A stretch of DNA of 64,000 bases from Candidatus Daviesbacteria bacterium. GTDB taxonomy: Bacteria; Patescibacteriota; Microgenomatia; Daviesbacterales; UBA10151. Within the stretch, counting starts at the first letter, position 1; each line of letters starts with the position of its first letter. Location of the stretch: NCBI GenBank assembly GCA_030699125.1, contig JAUYKM010000018.1, forward strand, positions 34,884-98,883, read 5' to 3'. The position numbers were made by a program, and so were the translations under genes. The notes under the pieces were generated by a model that did no database searches, was not told the DNA's origin, and saw only the letters and a program-made list of their open reading frames with translations. Shown here piece by piece: positions 13,572-41,754 of the stretch.

Positions 13572-13656
13572 ATAATTAGTCTTCAGCTTTCAGTCTTCAG
13601 TTATCAGATTTTTTGTTTCCCAGTCTGATAGCTGATAGCTGACGTCTGATTGCTAC
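13572..13656. repeat. Heptamer-periodic imperfect palindromic element A in the rpsO-pnp spacer (the pnp 5' leader). Its core is near-identical to element B at 40984..41061.
   Basis: On the minus strand it reads (NNNTCAG)n - A-rich loop - (CTGANNN)n - CTAATTAT. A 29-31 nt block ctgaagactgaaagctgaagactaattat is identical to element B in the same orientation relative to the downstream gene. Confidence 0.7.
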
Positions 13657-20691: not shown

Positions 20692-21657
20692 CTAAAACCA
20701 ACCTTTTTTCTTATCCGAAGGAGAGCTACGCTCATTTCCCAGCTTATAGAGTTCCTCATATAATTGTTTTTCCTGCTTGGAGGGATTTTTGGGTACATTT
20801 AAGTTTACCCTGACATAGTGATCACCGTAACCATGACTTCCCAATCTGGGGACTCCTTTACCTTTTAGTTTTACCAGAGATCCAGGCTGGGTGCCTGGAG
20901 GAACCTTAACCTTAACTTTTCCCTGTACTGTTTCTACCTCAAACACATCCCCTAAAACCAGTTGGGGGATATTTATAGTAATCTCGGAAAATATATCTGC
21001 CCCTTCCCTTAAGAATTCCGGATTTCTATCCACTCTGAAGACAATATCCAGATCACCAAATCTGATTTTAGTGCCATTATCTACTCCAGCTGGAACCTTT
21101 ATCCTCATTCTTTTTCTTTCCAGCCTTCCTTGAGCATTTCTTGTTTCCGTCTCAATATCTTTAGTCACTCCTTTAATGGCCTCATCAAAAGATACACTCA
21201 TCTGATAAGTAGGTCTTCTTCTCATGGCAGCTCCAAACCCTCCGCCAAAGATTTGTTCAAAAAGCTCAAACGGATCTTCAAATCCGCCAAAGTCAAACTG
21301 AATATTGGGATTACCACCTCCCGAGGATGACCAGGAATATTGCTGCCAGTCGCCGCCAAAGGGATTACCTCCACCCTGAGCACCGCCGAAGGGTCCGCCT
21401 GCCCCAGCTCCCCCGTATCCTCCGGCACCCCGGTCAAAAGCAGCATGACCAAATTGATCATAAGCTCCTTTTTTCTGGGGATCAGATAAAACCTGATAAG
21501 CCTCGCCAATCTCTTTAAATCTGCCTTCAGCCCCGGCAGTTTTATCTACATCAGGATGATGCTTTCTGGCCATCTTTCTATAAGCAGATTTAATCTCCTC
21601 AGCTGAGGCAGATTTAGAAACTCCAAGTATTTCGTAGTAGTCACGTTTAGTAGCCAT
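20692..21657 (-). CDS. dnaJ: DnaJ-family co-chaperone, type II (J-domain plus G/F region, no Cys-rich zinc finger)
   Basis: 321 aa. J-domain DYYEILGV...HPD, a G/F-rich linker, and no CxxCxGxG repeats. Confidence 0.85.
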
Positions 21658-21669
21658 ATTATTTATATT

Positions 21670-22068
21670 TTAAGATCTGGCGGGGGATTTTTGTTCCACT
21701 TTAGAAACACCTAAATTAGCGGAGGTGATCTCTTTTTTTCCTTCAGAAAAAGTGGCTTTATATATTCCAAACTGTTTAAATGGCAATCCCCCAAACTCAA
21801 TTAAAATATTGGCTCTGCCCCCGCGACCAATGGTAATATTAAAATCCCTCTCAAATACTACATTATCTCCTTTTTCGTGAGCCAATTTTACCCCAATAGT
21901 GACATTGGTATTAGCTTCACCCTCAAAGGAGGCCACCAGGAAACCTTTTTGTAAAATAGGACTATCATTTGAAGAATGGAAATGGTCAAATTCACCCAAG
22001 ATTGACAATTTGCCATCAGAGGAAGTCAGAGCATAATCACAGAAAAGGGCAAATCTGCCTTTAATCAT
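21670..22068 (-). CDS. Hypothetical protein inserted between dnaK and dnaJ
   Basis: 132 aa with no motif recognised. Overlaps the dnaK stop by 8 nt and lies 13 nt upstream of dnaJ, so it is co-transcribed within the heat-shock operon. Confidence 0.55.
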
Positions 22069-23998
22069 TCTTTTTCTCTTCCTCTACTACTTCACCTTCC
22101 ACAGTCTCTTCAGTCTTAGGAGCTTCACCAGTTGATTCTTCAGTCTTTGCTTCTTCCTTACCTGCTGTACCCTGTCCACTGTCACCTGTACCCTTTTGTT
22201 CATACATGGCTGATCCTACTTTCTGCAACACTTCTCCTAAGGCATCACCTTTTTTCTTAATATCATCTGTGTCCTCACCTTTCAAAGCCTCTTTTAACTC
22301 ATTTAATTTCTGTTCAACCTCTGTTCTAACATCCTGAGACACCTTATCCCCTTGCTCTTTTAAAGTTTTTTCTGTCTGATAAACCAATCCGTCAGCAATA
22401 TTTCTGATCTCAATCCCCTCTTTTTTCTTTTTATCTTCCTCGGCATGGGCTTCAGCCTCTTTAGTCATCCTTTCCACTTCAGACTTATCTAAGCCTGTGG
22501 AACCAGTGATGGTAATTTTTTGCTCCTTGCCGGTAGCTTTATCTTTGGCAGAAACATTTAAAATACCGTTAGCATCAATATCAAAAGTAACTTCAACTTG
22601 TGGAACTCCACGAGGAGCCGGTGGAATACCATCCAAAATAAAGCGGCCCAAAGATTTATTATCTGCAGCCATTTCCCTTTCACCTTGCAAAACATTAATC
22701 TCAACTGATGTCTGATTATCAGCAGCGGTGGAGAAAACTTCTGATTTGGAGGAAGGAATAGTGGTATTTCTATTTATTAAGGAGGTGCGGACTCCACCCA
22801 AAGTTTCAATTCCCAAGGTCAAGGGTGTCACATCAAGTAAAAGCACATCTTTAACTTCCCCACCCAATACCCCTCCCTGAATAGCCGCACCAACAGCCAC
22901 CACTTCATCAGGATTAATGCCTTTGTGCGGTTCTTTGCCAAAAAACTCCTGGACCGACTTTTGTACGGCAGGCATTCTGGTCATGCCTCCCACCAAAACT
23001 ACTTCATCAATTCCGCCAGCTGGCGGATTTTCGTTCATCTTGGCATCCTTAAGACAACTCTTTACTGCCTCAAAGGATTTATCAATTAAAGGTTTAACCA
23101 TGGCCTCAAGCTTAGCCCTGGATAATTTCATCTCCAAGTGCTTGGGACCAGAATCTGTGGCTGTGACAAAAGGAATGGAAATCTCTGCCTCCATGGAGGA
23201 AGAAAGCTCAATCTTGGCTTTTTCCGCTGCATCACGTAATCGTTGCAAAGCTTGTTTGTCACCTTTTAGATCAATTCCCTCAAGTTTCTTAAACTCCTCT
23301 GCTAAATAATCTAAAATTACCTGGTCAAAATCATCTCCACCTAAGTGTGTATCACCATTAGTGGATTTAACCTCAAAAACTCCCTCACCCAGTTCCAAAA
23401 CAGAGATATCAAAAGTGCCTCCACCCAGATCGTAAACAGCAATGGTGTGAGCGTGTGATTTATCCAAGCCATAGGCCAGGGCTGCCGCAGTGGGTTCATT
23501 AATAATTCTTTGCACATTAAGTCCGGCAATTTCCCCGGCTTGTTTGGTGGCTTGCCTTTGGGCATCATCAAAATAGGCAGGAACAGTAATCACAGCATCA
23601 GTTACTTTTTCACCTAAATAGGATTCAGCATCAGCTTTAATTTTTTGCAGGATTTGAGCAGAAATTTCTTGAGGAGTATATTCATGGCCTTCCACTTCCA
23701 CCACAGCCATACCATTTTTACCGGACTTGATAGTATAAGGAAGCCATTTCATGTCCCTTTGGACCTCAGGATCATTAAATTTTCTTCCCATCAGTCTTTT
23801 GATAGAAAAAATGGTTTCTTTGGGATTTACCACAGCTTGGCGTTTGGCCACTCTGCCCACAATATTTTTGACAGGATTAACAACAGAGGGGATGATATTT
23901 TCCCCCTCAGCTGAGTGGATAACTTTGGGCTTTCCACCCTCCATTACCGCCACAGCAGAATTTGTTGTTCCTAAATCAATTCCTACAATTTTAGTCAT
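22061..23998 (-). CDS. dnaK: Molecular chaperone DnaK (Hsp70)
   Basis: 645 aa with [18 protein letters not shown] and an EEVD-like acidic C-terminus. Confidence 0.97.
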
Positions 23999-24016
23999 AT
24001 TATTAAATTCCTTTCA

Positions 24017-24235
24017 TTATCCATCAGTCCAAAGAGCTAATGATCTTCTGCTTTTGTTAATTCTTAAGATTGACGTGCTTGAGGGATATCGTAAAAATCC
24101 AACTAATGACATTACTCCTCCACCAACACCAAACAAAACTGGATCCCATGATTTTGGACCCCTAATTCTCAATTCCATATCTCTCTTCCAACCTCCAGTT
24201 ATATTACTAAATCTTCTTTCTTTACTTTCTATCAT
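24017..24235 (-). CDS. Candidate small ORF (72 aa) in the grpE-dnaK spacer, preceded by a perfect Shine-Dalgarno sequence
   Basis: AAGGAG (complement of 24242..24247) sits 6 nt before the ATG. The product MIESKERRFSN...GPKSWDPVLFGVGGGVMSLVGFL has no recognisable family. Coding status is uncertain. Confidence 0.3.
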   Translation of the reverse strand: MIESKERRFSNITGGWKRDMELRIRGPKSWDPVLFGVGGGVMSLVGFLRYPSSTSILRINKSRRSLALWTDG

Positions 24236-24255
24236 ATTTTTCTCCTTTTTTACTT

Positions 24256-24340
24256 GTCATTCTGAACGTAGTGAAGAATCTCTCAGTTTATCTGAGGAAC
24301 CTTGCATTCGCAAGAGATCCTTCGTTTCACTCAGGATGAC
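24256..24340 (-). other. Complex structured inverted-repeat element that starts at the grpE stop codon. Outer arms gtcatcctgagtgaa / ttcactacgttcagaatgac enclose two inner hairpins (cttgc-gaat-gcaag and ctcag-ataaa-ctgag).
   Basis: Read directly on the minus strand. Not followed by a U-tract. Lies immediately upstream of the SD of the small ORF. Confidence 0.5.
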
Positions 24341-24888
24341 ATTTCTCCTTCCCCAGATCCTTCGTCGCTGGATTGCTCCTCAGGATGATTATCTTGCTTC
24401 CGCCCGACAATCACTTGCGCTGGTCTTAAAACTTTTCCATTTAAATTATACCCTTTTCTAACAACTTCCAAAATACTATTCTCACCCTTGCCCGCCGAAG
24501 CTTCAGCGGAGGAGGGTTCACGAGTATCAACTGCCTCATGAAGGCTTGGATCAAATTGTCCCTCTTCCGGTATTTCATCCAACCCTTCCTGAGCTAAAAC
24601 CTGTTTAAATTCCTTGACTGCCAACTCTACTCCTTTAAACCAACCTGACTCCTTCTCCTGTTCACTTGTTCCACCCAAGGCTTGTTCTAAGTGATCCAGA
24701 GTTGGTATTAGCTTCCTTAACAATTCTGCCCCAACGTAGGCAACCATCTCTGAACGGCCTTCAGAAATTCTTCTCTCCAGATTCTGATAATCAGCTACTG
24801 CTCTTTTGAGCTGATTTTCCAAATCAGTTACTCTGGTTTGTAATTGTTCCAATTCCTCGTTTTTTTTATTATCTTGTTTCTTAGACAT
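24331..24888 (-). CDS. grpE: Nucleotide exchange factor GrpE
   Basis: GrpE coiled-coil and C-terminal domain. Start chosen at MSKKQDNKK (24886-24888); the ORF-track start at 24921 adds 11 hydrophobic residues. Confidence 0.85.
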   Translation of the reverse strand: MSKKQDNKKNEELEQLQTRVTDLENQLKRAVADYQNLERRISEGRSEMVAYVGAELLRKLIPTLDHLEQALGGTSEQEKESGWFKGVELAVKEFKQVLAQEGLDEIPEEGQFDPSLHEAVDTREPSSAEASAGKGENSILEVVRKGYNLNGKVLRPAQVIVGRKQDNHPEEQSSDEGSGEGEMSS

Positions 24889-24976: not shown

Positions 24977-25723
24977 TCATACCCTTCCTGCTTCACAAAC
25001 TAAATTTCTGACATATTTGACATAAGGCAACACAAGCGAAAAATTCATCCTGGCAGGACCGATTACTCCAATCACCCCGCCTTTTCCGGGAATGGCCGGA
25101 TTTATAGGTACAAACTCATACCTGGTAAAAACAAATCCTGTAGGAACCAAATCCTCATAGCCTAACTCTTCTCCAAAAAGAATATGGATTGGATCTGCTC
25201 CTTGAGCTTTGCCAATAATCTCGACTAACCTGGGGTTCTCATCAAATAAAGATAAAACCATTCTGGCTACATCAATATCATAAAATTCCGGCCAGTCCAA
25301 AATATTGGCTGCCCCGGCATAATATACCTGCCCTTCATCATCCCGGGCCAAACCTAATATTCCTAAGCGATTTGCCAAAGCTGAAACTGCCTCTTTTAAT
25401 AATTTTTCTTCTTGAGCTTTCTGCTGCCATAATTTCTCTTTGATCGAAACTTCGGCAGTTATCGGCAATTCCTTCTCTTTCATCAGTTCCGAGATATAAA
25501 GTCTCATTCCCATAGAAGTAGGCGTTCTGCCGGCTGAAGTATGCGGCTGTCTCAGATAGCCTCCTTCAGTCAGCTTTCCCATTTCAATTCTGATGGTGGC
25601 AGGGGAAACCCCCAGATCATACTTCCTTTCTATTATCTCTGAACCTACCGGTTCAGCTGATTCGATATATTCCTCAATAATTGCTTTTAAAAGTGCCTTT
25701 TGTCTATCGGTTAAATCAGACAT
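24977..25723 (-). CDS. hrcA: Heat-inducible transcription repressor HrcA
   Basis: HrcA N-terminal winged helix MSDLTDRQKALLKAIIEEY. Start chosen at this Met (25721-25723); the longer ORF to 25822 would overlap the CIRCE, the promoter and nadK. Confidence 0.85.
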   Translation of the reverse strand: MSDLTDRQKALLKAIIEEYIESAEPVGSEIIERKYDLGVSPATIRIEMGKLTEGGYLRQPHTSAGRTPTSMGMRLYISELMKEKELPITAEVSIKEKLWQQKAQEEKLLKEAVSALANRLGILGLARDDEGQVYYAGAANILDWPEFYDIDVARMVLSLFDENPRLVEIIGKAQGADPIHILFGEELGYEDLVPTGFVFTRYEFVPINPAIPGKGGVIGVIGPARMNFSLVLPYVKYVRNLVCEAGRV

Positions 25724-25725
25724 AG

Positions 25726-25752
25726 TTAGCAGTAATATACACCGAGTGCTAA
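25726..25752. promoter_or_regulatory. CIRCE operator (HrcA binding site) TTAGCAGTA-N9-GAGTGCTAA directly upstream of hrcA, overlapping a TTGACA-N17-TATATT promoter (minus sense)
   Basis: Right arm matches the consensus TTAGCACTC-N9-GAGTGCTAA perfectly; the left arm matches 7 of 9. -35 TTGACA at 25759..25764 (complement). The -10 sits inside the CIRCE spacer. Confidence 0.8.
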
Positions 25753-25791
25753 TATTTGTCAAGATAGTGTCTTTAGTAGTACCATTCCTGT

Positions 25792-26487
25792 ATGAAGATA
25801 CTCTTATTTGGTAACGATGCAAAAGATATAGAAGGATTGGTAAAAAAATTGGGCTTTGAGATAGTAAGCTCCAACCCGGATGTAATTATAAGCTATGGGG
25901 GAGATGGTACCCTTCTTTCCTCAGAAAGAGAATATCCAGGTATTCCCAAACTACCCATCAGAAATTCCCAGTTTTGCAATAAATGTGCTGAGCATGCAGA
26001 TGAACATTTGCTTTCACAATTTTTAGAAGATAAACCACAATTCAGAGAATATAAAAAGCTTCATACTAATATTGAAGGTAAAGATTTATACGCCTTAAAT
26101 GATTTTGTAGTCAGAAATGAACTACCCATGCATGCTATTAGATTTCAGATAGATGATGGTCAACTCTTAATCGGCGATGGAATAGTTGTGGCAACTCCCT
26201 TTGGCTCAACCGGTTATTTTAAAAGTATTTCTCAAAAAACTTTTGATACTGGATTTGGCTTAGCTTTTAACAATCTAACAGAAAAAAAAGAACCTTTATT
26301 TTTACAAGATAAAGATTTACTAACCTTTAAATTAGTTAGAGGTAAGGCTACCTTATCTTTTGATAATAGTGCTGATATTTTTACAATCGACGAGGGCTCT
26401 GAACTTGTGTTTAAATTATCAGACCATCTTGCCAAAATCTATGAACCCACCTCTTTGCGCTGCCCTAACTGCAAGGTCCAAAGATAG
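25792..26487 (+). CDS. nadK: NAD+ kinase
   Basis: 231 aa with the GGDGT motif (ISYGGDGTLL) and the NADK C-terminal domain. Confidence 0.8.
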   Translation: MKILLFGNDAKDIEGLVKKLGFEIVSSNPDVIISYGGDGTLLSSEREYPGIPKLPIRNSQFCNKCAEHADEHLLSQFLEDKPQFREYKKLHTNIEGKDLYALNDFVVRNELPMHAIRFQIDDGQLLIGDGIVVATPFGSTGYFKSISQKTFDTGFGLAFNNLTEKKEPLFLQDKDLLTFKLVRGKATLSFDNSADIFTIDEGSELVFKLSDHLAKIYEPTSLRCPNCKVQR

Positions 26488-40983: not shown

Positions 40984-41061
40984 AGAGCTATCAGTCATCA
41001 GACGTCAGTCGTCAGACAATCAGAAATCTGAAAGCTGAAGACTGAAAGCTGAAGACTAATT
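40984..41061. repeat. Heptamer-periodic imperfect palindromic element B immediately upstream of the 3D-domain gene ATG. Paralogous to element A at 13572..13656.
   Basis: Plus strand reads (NNNTCAG)x5 - aaat - (CTGAAAG/CTGAAGA)x4 - CTAATT - ATG. The last ~31 nt are identical to element A read toward pnp. Confidence 0.7.
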
Positions 41062-41754
41062 ATGGAAAGATATCTGGGAATCTTATTAATAATAGGACTC
41101 ACCATTTTTGCCGGTTCTTTTTGGCAAAATCCCGTTATTCTGGGGGAATCCACAGGCCCTTCCCAAATTCTGCCAATTAGTCAGCCTGTTCTCACTCAAT
41201 CTGCCTTTAGTGAAAAATTGGAAGAAGATATAGAAATAATTCCTAAAAAAACAGTCTATGAGGATGACCCGGAGACTGAAGCAGGAATAGAAAAAATATT
41301 AGAAGAAGGCGAAGATGGTAAAAGGGTTAAAATTATCAAAATTACCTATTATAAAGATGGCGATGAATATGATAGACAAATTGTTTCTACTGAAACCACG
41401 CCAGCCAAAAATAAAATCATTTCAAGAGGCACTAAAATTATCTGGAAAACCTTAGCTACCGCTGATGGAGAAATTAGGTATTGGAAAAAATTACGGGTCT
41501 ATGCCACTCATTATGATTCCAGATGTCCAGGATGTAATGAATGGACAGCCATTGGTATGAGAGCCGGCAAAGGCGTTATTGCTGTTGATCCCAAAGTTAT
41601 ACCCTTAAGATCTAAAGTTTATATTCCGGAATACGGGATGGCCATAGCCGGAGATACTGGCGGAGCCATTAAAGGAAATATTATAGATTTAGGCTTTGAT
41701 GATGCCAGAACAGCCGGCTGGAGAGCAAAATTTGTAGATATTTATCTCTTATAG
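41062..41754 (+). CDS. G5 domain + 3D (MltA-like) domain cell-wall protein (YabE/RpfB-like)
   Basis: 230 aa. Signal/TM helix, a G5-like segment, and a 3D domain YATHYDSRCPGCNEWTAIGMRAGKGVIAVDPKVIP...AGDTGGAIKGNIID. Confidence 0.75.
   Translation: MERYLGILLIIGLTIFAGSFWQNPVILGESTGPSQILPISQPVLTQSAFSEKLEEDIEIIPKKTVYEDDPETEAGIEKILEEGEDGKRVKIIKITYYKDGDEYDRQIVSTETTPAKNKIISRGTKIIWKTLATADGEIRYWKKLRVYATHYDSRCPGCNEWTAIGMRAGKGVIAVDPKVIPLRSKVYIPEYGMAIAGDTGGAIKGNIIDLGFDDARTAGWRAKFVDIYLL

Follow-up and report, generated by a model that had tools for sequence, protein, structure and literature searches.

The long grpE-dnaK spacer of a Candidatus Daviesbacteria heat-shock operon as a probable composite of a palindromic repeat and a small gene

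The grpE-dnaK spacer and its two parts

The chaperone genes grpE and dnaK are separated by 332 nt in a contig of a Candidatus Daviesbacteria bacterium (JAUYKM010000018.1, positions 34,884 to 98,883; the 64,000 nt analysed are called the window). We propose, with a probability of roughly three in four, that this spacer combines a dispersed palindromic repeat, which forms a hairpin at the grpE stop codon, with a separate real gene, both lying within a single HrcA/CIRCE (controlling inverted repeat of chaperone expression) operon. The gene is an open reading frame (ORF) for a 72-aa protein and is referred to as ORF72. In related loci (L numbers) the two parts are found apart from each other. The grpE stop of L064 is followed, after 1 nt, by the ATG of an ORF72 homologue, and in L001 a homologue stands after a different small gene and before dnaK; neither locus has the hairpin. 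Locus L021 has the hairpin followed by dnaK with no ORF, and in L006, L023, L034 and L008 the hairpin precedes ORFs that are unrelated to ORF72. Judged by this comparison, hairpin and ORF72 appear to be unrelated parts that are inherited separately.

The anatomy of the spacer is as the first-pass annotation of this DNA had described it. The spacer spans 23999-24330 on the minus strand, from the grpE TGA at 24331-24333 to the dnaK ATG at 23996-23998. An inverted repeat is present at the grpE stop, and its outer arms enclose two small hairpins, CTTGC-GAAU-GCAAG and CUCAG-AUAAA-CUGAG. No U-tract follows on its 3' side, where the next bases are AAGUAAAAAAGGAG. The Shine-Dalgarno (SD) motif AAGGAG of ORF72 (24242-24247) is separated by 6 nt from the ATG at 24233-24235, and the ORF (24017-24235) ends 18 nt ahead of dnaK. 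Across the region, the sequence of the window recurs without change in an independent Logan assembly (L065). The spacer had also been called structured. This applies to the repeat element of 87 nt and not to the spacer as a whole, for which folding of 361 nt gave z = -0.64.

The operon is recognised by its control region (25726-25762, minus strand), which was identified by motif matches. A CIRCE (TTAGCACTC-N9-GAGTGCTAA) with 2 mismatches lies at 25726-25752, where 0.01 such sites are expected by chance, and overlaps a sigma-70-like promoter (TTGACA-17-TATATT, 25734-25762) that scores 11 of 12. No second CIRCE-like site was matched elsewhere in the 64-kb window. Since CIRCE and promoter stand directly upstream of hrcA and no other CIRCE occurs in the 64 kb, the chaperone genes form a classical HrcA/CIRCE heat-shock operon; both of its hallmarks, the CIRCE at the promoter and the hrcA gene, are present. 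The gene order on the minus strand is hrcA-grpE-orf72-dnaK-DUF6941-dnaJ.

Within such an operon, transcription would read through the repeat and leave a stable hairpin inside the polycistronic mRNA. The most likely effect is one like that of repetitive extragenic palindromic (REP) sequences, in which the hairpin would shield the upstream hrcA-grpE RNA from 3' exonucleases. In addition or instead, ribosomes might terminate inside the stem, which would damp GrpE termination or translation; this is conceivable because the grpE stop codon lies within the stem. Either effect would tune the output of GrpE relative to that of DnaK. ORF72 would be made together with DnaK once repression by HrcA is lifted, and it would fill a permissive slot in which sister lineages hold unrelated small genes or nothing. 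Co-expression of ORF72 with DnaK on heat shock is presumed because the gene lies inside the single HrcA/CIRCE operon. Of the three readings offered by the first-pass annotation, a heat-shock-regulated small protein is the best supported, by conserved coding and by the CIRCE operon, with co-expression as its presumptive part. Both components are of known kinds, and no major concept is changed on present evidence. An odd-looking heat-shock operon is resolved into ordinary components, and two other readings of it, as an RNA thermosensor and as a miniature inverted-repeat transposable element (MITE) with cargo, are removed.

The palindromic repeat

The element covers 24255-24341 (TGTCATCCTGAGTGAAACGAAGGATCTC ... 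GAGATTCTTCACTACGTTCAGAATGACA), is listed without a strand, and is supported by its fold statistics and by its dispersed arm. It folds with a predicted minimum free energy of -32.9 kcal/mol (z = -4.57); none of 200 shuffled sequences folded equally well. Its outer stem (TGTCATCCTGA / TCAGAATGACA) is separated from the inner stem (GAAGGATCTC / GAGATTCTTC) by one 7-nt mini-hairpin per arm, GTGAAAC and ACTACGT in the window. The apex varies among copies and holds the two small hairpins in the window. Among 42 scorable copies with a 5' GTGAAAC, the opposite segment is nearly always self-complementary (ACTTCGT, GCTTCGC, ACTGCGT, GCTGCGC and similar, with stems of 2 bp), whereas the true complement GTTTCAC is found opposite in only 2. 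The family as a whole can be written TGTCATCCTGAGNGNANCGAAGGATC ... GATTCTTC-mini-hairpin-TCAGAATGACA, with covarying mini-hairpins of the GCGNAGC type. We also considered whether mismatches in the arms represent G.U pairs specific to the sense RNA and rejected this, as sense and antisense strands fold equally well.

The repeat is widely dispersed. The exact 24-nt arm of the window occurs in at least 120 metagenome contigs (L131-L250) with GC contents of 28-65%, and 65 viral stretches of IMG/VR (L066-L130) match a relaxed arm with 22 specified bases, GTCATCCTGAGNGNANCGAAGGATC. Among the matches listed, the 3' arm (..TCAGAATGAC) lies within 200 nt in 75 of 122 distinct instances, with a median element of 75 nt, and about four-fifths of the instances are outside long ORFs. 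Copies are also present in plasmids of Planktothrix and Gloeothece (L251/L252), unannotated in the records inspected. Position 2501-2578 of L251 (Planktothrix plasmid AP017994) and the hits H2 and H3 place copies or arms inside large annotated coding sequences of Planktothrix agardhii plasmids, among them those for a restriction-modification enzyme of the MmeI type and for a BREX methyltransferase, PglX. Rfam 15 returned for the spacer, with E allowed up to 10, only hairpin-like matches at E = 1.5-7, far below threshold, and arm variants retrieved only unrelated primer matches in the searchable literature. The repeat thus spans phyla with a conserved four-part architecture, no Rfam entry and no description of its sequence found in the literature searched. 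We file the element as a REP/MITE-like dispersed palindromic repeat on the strength of these sequence features.

At the grpE-dnaK junction the repeat is interlocked with the end of grpE. The first 11 nt of the element supply the last codons of grpE, (M)SS and TGA (..GGA GAA ATG TCA TCC TGA), giving the protein the tail ...GEMSS*. This tail belongs to GrpE residues ~174-196, which lie past the GrpE domain. Upstream in the same tail, a half-copy of the repeat arm (CATCCTGAG...CGAAGGATC, 24356-24387, minus strand), noticed on reading the sequence, is read in frame as HPEEQSSDEGS. Similar in-frame pieces occur in the grpE tails of L044, L006, L007, L014 and L017. GrpE tail pieces of the HPE...DEGS type are listed for L003 and L008 as well.

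Full elements share their start point (..GGAGAAATG|TCATCCTGA) in the window, L002, L021 and L023. Locus L034 has a close variant at the shared start, L006 a related element 6 nt after the grpE stop, and the hairpin of L002 is a shorter version of 59 nt with the same outer arms. Two further copies lie at other joints of the operon, one in L006 (3102-3168) between CIRCE and the hrcA ATG and one in L026 (3778-3833) between hrcA and grpE.

Over ~512 kb of related loci, the 8-nt core of the arm matches 17 times in 11.6 kb of junctions and 70 times in the 501 kb elsewhere, and the count outside junctions is about that expected by chance. A fuzzy arm search in shuffled loci gave 0 matches, and only two repeat copies were found in the ~500 kb of related loci outside the junction. 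On these counts, Daviesbacteria retain the repeats preferentially where the operon has its noncoding joints. Common ancestry, together with whatever force keeps the arms uniform everywhere, would be sufficient to explain this persistence.

The hairpin might instead be a selected, operon-specific cis-regulatory RNA that sets the GrpE:DnaK ratio, marks a processing site or binds a protein. This proposal overlaps with the composite spacer and differs from it in what maintains the element; we regard it as possible but rather unlikely. In its favour, the start of the element is shared among loci although their GrpE proteins are only 55-66% identical, and the 3' arm (..TCAGAATGACAAA) is conserved in spite of being noncoding. 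The ~10-fold enrichment at the junction and the copies at the two remaining noncoding joints of the operon (L006 and L026) point the same way. Hairpins of E. coli REPs that lie no more than about 15 nt from a stop codon reportedly lower translation of the upstream gene. On the other hand, the arms are identical to the base in contigs that have no connection with dnaK, across 28-65% GC and with no preference for orientation. Since the same arms are conserved in contigs unrelated to dnaK, their conservation needs no operon-specific function. The equal folding of sense and antisense strands also speaks against a selected RNA, as do L064 and 17 other loci, which lack any spacer.

Like the REPs and bacterial interspersed mosaic elements of Proteobacteria, the element is a short imperfect palindrome that is dispersed in intergenic DNA, often stands in operons just past stop codons and forms a stable hairpin without a U-tract. 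Known effects of REPs are the stabilisation of mRNA upstream of them and a modulated expression of flanking cistrons. REPs associated with REP-associated tyrosine transposases (RAYTs) carry a 5' GTAG/GTGG head followed by a palindrome of 20-40 nt (PMC2817692). The element lacks this head and begins with TGTCAT (TGTCATCC). It is also longer (57-100 nt; 87 in the window) and consists of four parts, namely its two stems and its two mini-hairpins. Furthermore, the 64-kb window holds one copy, whereas REPs exceed 100 per genome, and the sequence spans contigs of 28-65% GC, whereas REPs are species-specific.

Features of MITEs are the terminal inverted repeats (TGTCATCCTGA...TCAGAATGACA), the variable interior, the length below 200 nt and the occasional insertion in coding regions. 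The many dispersed copies in either orientation are likewise MITE-like, but they are seen here across organisms and not within this genome. Unlike MITEs, the element has no observed target-site duplication and no identified parent transposon, for which no search was made, and the identity of its arms across very different genomes is unusually high. Rickettsia palindromic elements are palindromic repeats read in frame within proteins. The GrpE tail HPEEQSSDEGS...MSS*, which consists of the half-copy and the start of the full element, and the Planktothrix copies in coding sequences resemble them by description. However, the element is much shorter, and here it mostly lengthens a C-terminus instead of breaking into a domain.

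ORF72 and the small-gene slot

Four proteins make up the ORF72 family, namely the window protein, P0002 (73% identity), P0003 (55%) and P0004 (40-41%). They were recovered by searching 5.8 billion proteins with a word index and 1.84 billion representatives exhaustively with an HMMER profile; P0004 turned up in the latter search only (E = 1.8e-7), and among the 1.84 billion representatives nothing was found beyond the four members and one spurious repeat protein. The product of ORF72 is identical to Q8P92_05645, which NCBI lists as a hypothetical protein from a metagenome-assembled genome of Candidatus Daviesbacteria. The reading frame is intact in all four members, each with a strong SD and a stop 15-18 nt upstream of the dnaK ATG, and the layout of ORF stop followed by dnaK SD is the same in L001 and L002. 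Substitutions among the four are biased to the third codon position. The ratio of nonsynonymous to synonymous substitution rates (dN/dS, Nei-Gojobori) is 0.17-0.41 in four of the five scorable pairs and 0.68 in one saturated pair; the sixth pair is too saturated for scoring. Because there are four family members with a fixed place before dnaK and mostly low dN/dS (0.17-0.41), ORF72 is, as far as comparative sequence can tell, a real and constrained coding gene.

Its residue counts make the protein strongly basic, and it has invariant GG, GP, R-P-S and RRS...W positions. AlphaFold2, given four sequences only, predicts a compact beta-alpha-beta-beta fold with a mean predicted local distance difference test (pLDDT) score of 73.9. 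Neither Pfam, NCBIfam, PHROG nor PADLOC contains a matching family, and searches of the Protein Data Bank (PDB) by sequence, and of PDB and BFVD with Foldseek using the AlphaFold2 model, gave nothing below E = 0.4. Two descriptions in the first-pass annotation do not hold. The ORF was called GC-richer, yet it has 35.6% GC with 0.22 GC at third codon positions (GC3), against 42-43% and GC3 0.34-0.36 in grpE and dnaK and 37.4% in the window. The hydrophobic core assigned to it is no conserved membrane-like stretch, for it contains two lysines in the L002 homologue, and the AlphaFold2 model puts the segment in a helix. A reading of this segment as a membrane helix was dropped on account of the same lysines. 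Our best guess for ORF72 is a small basic protein that serves the DnaK system as an accessory or hitch-hikes with it, and it is a candidate lineage-specific chaperone accessory factor in a minimal-genome organism.

A stronger proposal would make ORF72 a dedicated factor of the DnaK system, acting as assembly factor, regulator or client mimic in the manner of Thermus DafA. ORF72 stands directly upstream of dnaK in all four members, even in L001, where the upstream gene is not grpE. It is small and basic, and its C-terminus has an invariant RRS-hydrophobic-W motif (RRSLALW in the window), which may resemble DnaK-binding peptides in its basic flank and hydrophobic core. DafA of Thermus is likewise small (~8 kDa) and encoded in the dnaK operon, in the order dnaK-grpE-dnaJ-dafA. 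The two are thus alike as very small proteins of a dnaK operon, ORF72 with 72 aa between grpE and dnaK, and differ in gene order, which is grpE-orf-dnaK here. The precedent lies in the DnaK3-DnaJ3-DafA3 complex of T. thermophilus, which involves DafA as assembly factor (PMC3727329).

Against a dedicated role, no homology was detected outside the four-member family in the 1.84 billion representatives, and no fold matched. The exhaustive profile search of the ORF72 family did not reveal homology to DafA, although the DafA sequence itself was not directly compared. Moreover, sister species have unrelated ORFs or none at the same site, and the chaperone system therefore works without ORF72. A DafA-like role would rest on precedent and is weakened by the diversity of the slot occupants; we consider it doubtful.

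This diversity emerges from 58 related loci with both grpE and dnaK. The genes overlap or are at most 3 nt apart in 17 loci, are separated by 12-103 nt in 21, and by 218-539 nt in 20. The spacer in the window is unusually long compared with bacteria in general, as the first-pass annotation had it, but not within its clade. Nearly every long spacer contains a plausible small ORF of 60-142 aa. Examples of such junctions are L006 (4517-4898), L008 (4520-5058) and L019 (1928-2204), from the range L003-L047. Long spacers thus recur among relatives with differing contents. A tblastn search with the ORF72 family against 61 related grpE loci gave no matches, and in an all-versus-all BLASTP comparison the slot ORFs form at least 12 unrelated groups. 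Homologous pairs are L005/L046, L019/L023 (zinc-ribbon DUF6487), L016/L032, and L047 with the 132-aa ORF of L001. When ORF72 and 21 slot or slot-adjacent ORFs were compared with Pfam, PHROGs, PADLOC and NCBIfam, the only family found was DUF6487 for the L019/L023 type.

In several loci (L003, L006, L008, L039 and L046) the slot ORFs end in NG*, DG* or YG*, and their stop is the TAA in the ATGGCTAA of dnaK. This 8-nt overlap splices them into the translation of the operon and implies coupling with dnaK. Upstream of its ORF72 homologue, L001 has two other small ORFs (121 and 132 aa, 339-1121) in place of grpE. The 132-aa ORF is homologous (E = 3e-16) to a grpE-dnaK spacer ORF of Levybacteria (L047, 4678-5022). 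The L001 ORFs and the L047 homology indicate that slot genes can stack and are shared across candidate phyla. Carriers of ORF72 are not mutual nearest neighbours by identity of the DnaK N-terminus, though the high conservation of DnaK keeps this test from being a strong one.

ORF72 thus appears to be one of many occupants of a permissive, possibly purposeful site. About a third of the related loci hold small slot ORFs, a pattern of gene turnover that stands out in an otherwise ultra-conserved operon. The arrangement recalls phage morons and flexible genomic islets in its conserved flanks (grpE and dnaK), its variable unrelated content and its patchy distribution in the clade; it differs from them in that the slot genes lack promoters and terminators of their own and are integrated in the translation of the operon. 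One could go further and view the junction as a dedicated exchange slot for small, fast-turnover proteins that act on or through DnaK, with the palindromic four-way-junction repeat at the grpE stop codon as the signal for recombination or insertion by which cassettes are swapped. The slot proteins might then be client mimics, regulators or anti-phage decoys, for example, and ORF72 would be one allele class. Such a slot would be integron-like in concept, but there is no integrase nearby, and we think it quite improbable.

Several points weigh against the composite spacer as we propose it. Recurrence of the repeat at exactly this junction in many Daviesbacteria, together with the copies at the L006 and L026 joints, could reflect an operon-specific function. 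Within the 64-kb window, a mismatch search, a repeat finder and regular expressions yielded no convincing second copy of the inverted repeat, hence mobility within the genome is unsupported. Neither a transposase nor a target-site duplication nor a RAYT gene came to light, though no search dedicated to autonomous elements or RAYTs was made. The repeat seems to have no orientation bias relative to flanking ORFs, with a ratio of roughly 50:50, but the counts (nearest upstream ORF on the same strand in 35 and on the opposite strand in 42 of the matches listed; downstream 38 versus 29) come from a crude ORF heuristic and not from a gene caller. For ORF72, dN/dS rests on few comparisons in a family of four, and the 12 or more unrelated ORF groups in the slot argue against each of them being a dedicated DnaK cofactor. 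Finally, both the expression of ORF72 and any effects of the hairpin on RNA and translation are predictions from sequence.

The first-pass annotation had suggested a MITE-like insertion carrying its own micro-gene, and the half of this proposal that survives is the hairpin, which is a dispersed palindromic repeat. A single mobile unit of hairpin and ORF, in which such an element brought in ORF72 as its cargo, might be suggested by their direct adjacency and by AAGGAGAAA, which stands before and after the element in the window as well as in L002. The flanking sequence is due to the SD of the ORF and the purine-rich grpE tail and is not seen in other copies. As a 9-nt target-site duplication it was rejected, since other family copies lack it, and no flanking direct repeat recurs among the copies inspected. 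Furthermore, the 87 nt make up the complete element, which stops short of the SD, and no second inverted repeat lies past the ORF. A mobile element with its own gene is excluded because the ORF occurs without the hairpin (L064, L001), and the hairpin without the ORF (L021) or with others; we give the cargo model hardly any weight.

Regulation of dnaK translation or transcription by an RNA thermometer or a leader-peptide attenuator was another suggestion, prompted by the structured RNA that precedes a heat-shock gene and by the short ORF just ahead of dnaK. Folding at 25-50 °C did not reveal sequestration of either SD. Predicted unpaired probabilities over this range are 0.82-0.94 for the SD and AUG of ORF72, whose SD lies 8 nt past the 3' end of the element, and 0.64-0.75 for those of dnaK, and the hairpin alone goes from -41 to -22 kcal/mol and thus still has -22 kcal/mol at 50 °C. 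There is no terminator/antiterminator alternative and no U-tract, and no thermometer or leader family of Rfam matches even with E up to 10. The 72-aa product is conserved along nearly its entire length with dN/dS below 1, and we consider control of this kind highly improbable. The hairpin is not an intrinsic terminator either: a scan called nothing at 24250-24345, AAGUAAAAAAGG follows the stem, and this reading was ruled out for want of a U-tract. That ORF72 is a reading frame arisen by chance in noncoding DNA of the spacer, as its shortness, missing known domain and AT-rich third positions (GC3 0.22) might suggest, is contradicted by four intact orthologues at 40-73% amino acid identity with third-position bias, own SDs and a fixed position, and by the compact AlphaFold2 fold (pLDDT 74) from four sequences alone, leaving it next to no probability.

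Gene layout and further observations

All genes of the operon are on the minus strand. The hrcA gene (24977-25723) has the Pfam HrcA C-terminal domain (E = 4e-19), with the ATG of MSDLTDRQ taken as its start. CIRCE ends 2 nt before this likely ATG (25721-25723), and the -10 box ends at 25734. With CIRCE and the -10 box so close to the ATG, the hrcA mRNA would be leaderless or nearly so. A TTG start at 25822, given for hrcA in the mechanical ORF list, is probably wrong because it lies upstream of the promoter. The grpE gene (24331-24888) matches Pfam GrpE (E = 1.5e-38) over residues 14-173 of a 196-aa ORF that starts at the ATG of MSKKQDN. Downstream of ORF72, the small basic protein gene at 24017-24235, the dnaK SD GAAAGGA (24009-24015) directly follows the ORF72 stop, and dnaK itself occupies 22061-23998 in the ORF list, with its ATG at 23996-23998. 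The N-terminal 200 aa of DnaK are 86-95% identical to Daviesbacteria DnaK and less so to DnaK of more distant phyla. The last chaperone gene of the operon is dnaJ (20692-21657), whose J-domain N-terminus was recognised by eye in the translation.

Between dnaK and dnaJ lies a second non-canonical small gene of the operon, which encodes a 132-aa DUF6941 protein (21670-22068; Pfam E = 7.8e-15) and overlaps the end of dnaK, including its stop, by 8 nt. For detection of the ORF72 product, the sequence predicts the tryptic peptides GPKSWDPVLFGVGGGVMSLVGFLR and YPSSTSILR. A scan of all 64 kb against Rfam found no family at gathering score, including rRNAs, riboswitches and other curated RNAs. A 40-nt sequence with a TCAG-containing 7-nt periodicity, ATAATTAGTCTTCAGCTTTCAGTCTTCAGTTATCAGATTT, is present at 13572-13611 and at 41024-41063; the two copies are inverted, 27 kb apart and 95% complementary, and are unrelated to the grpE hairpin.

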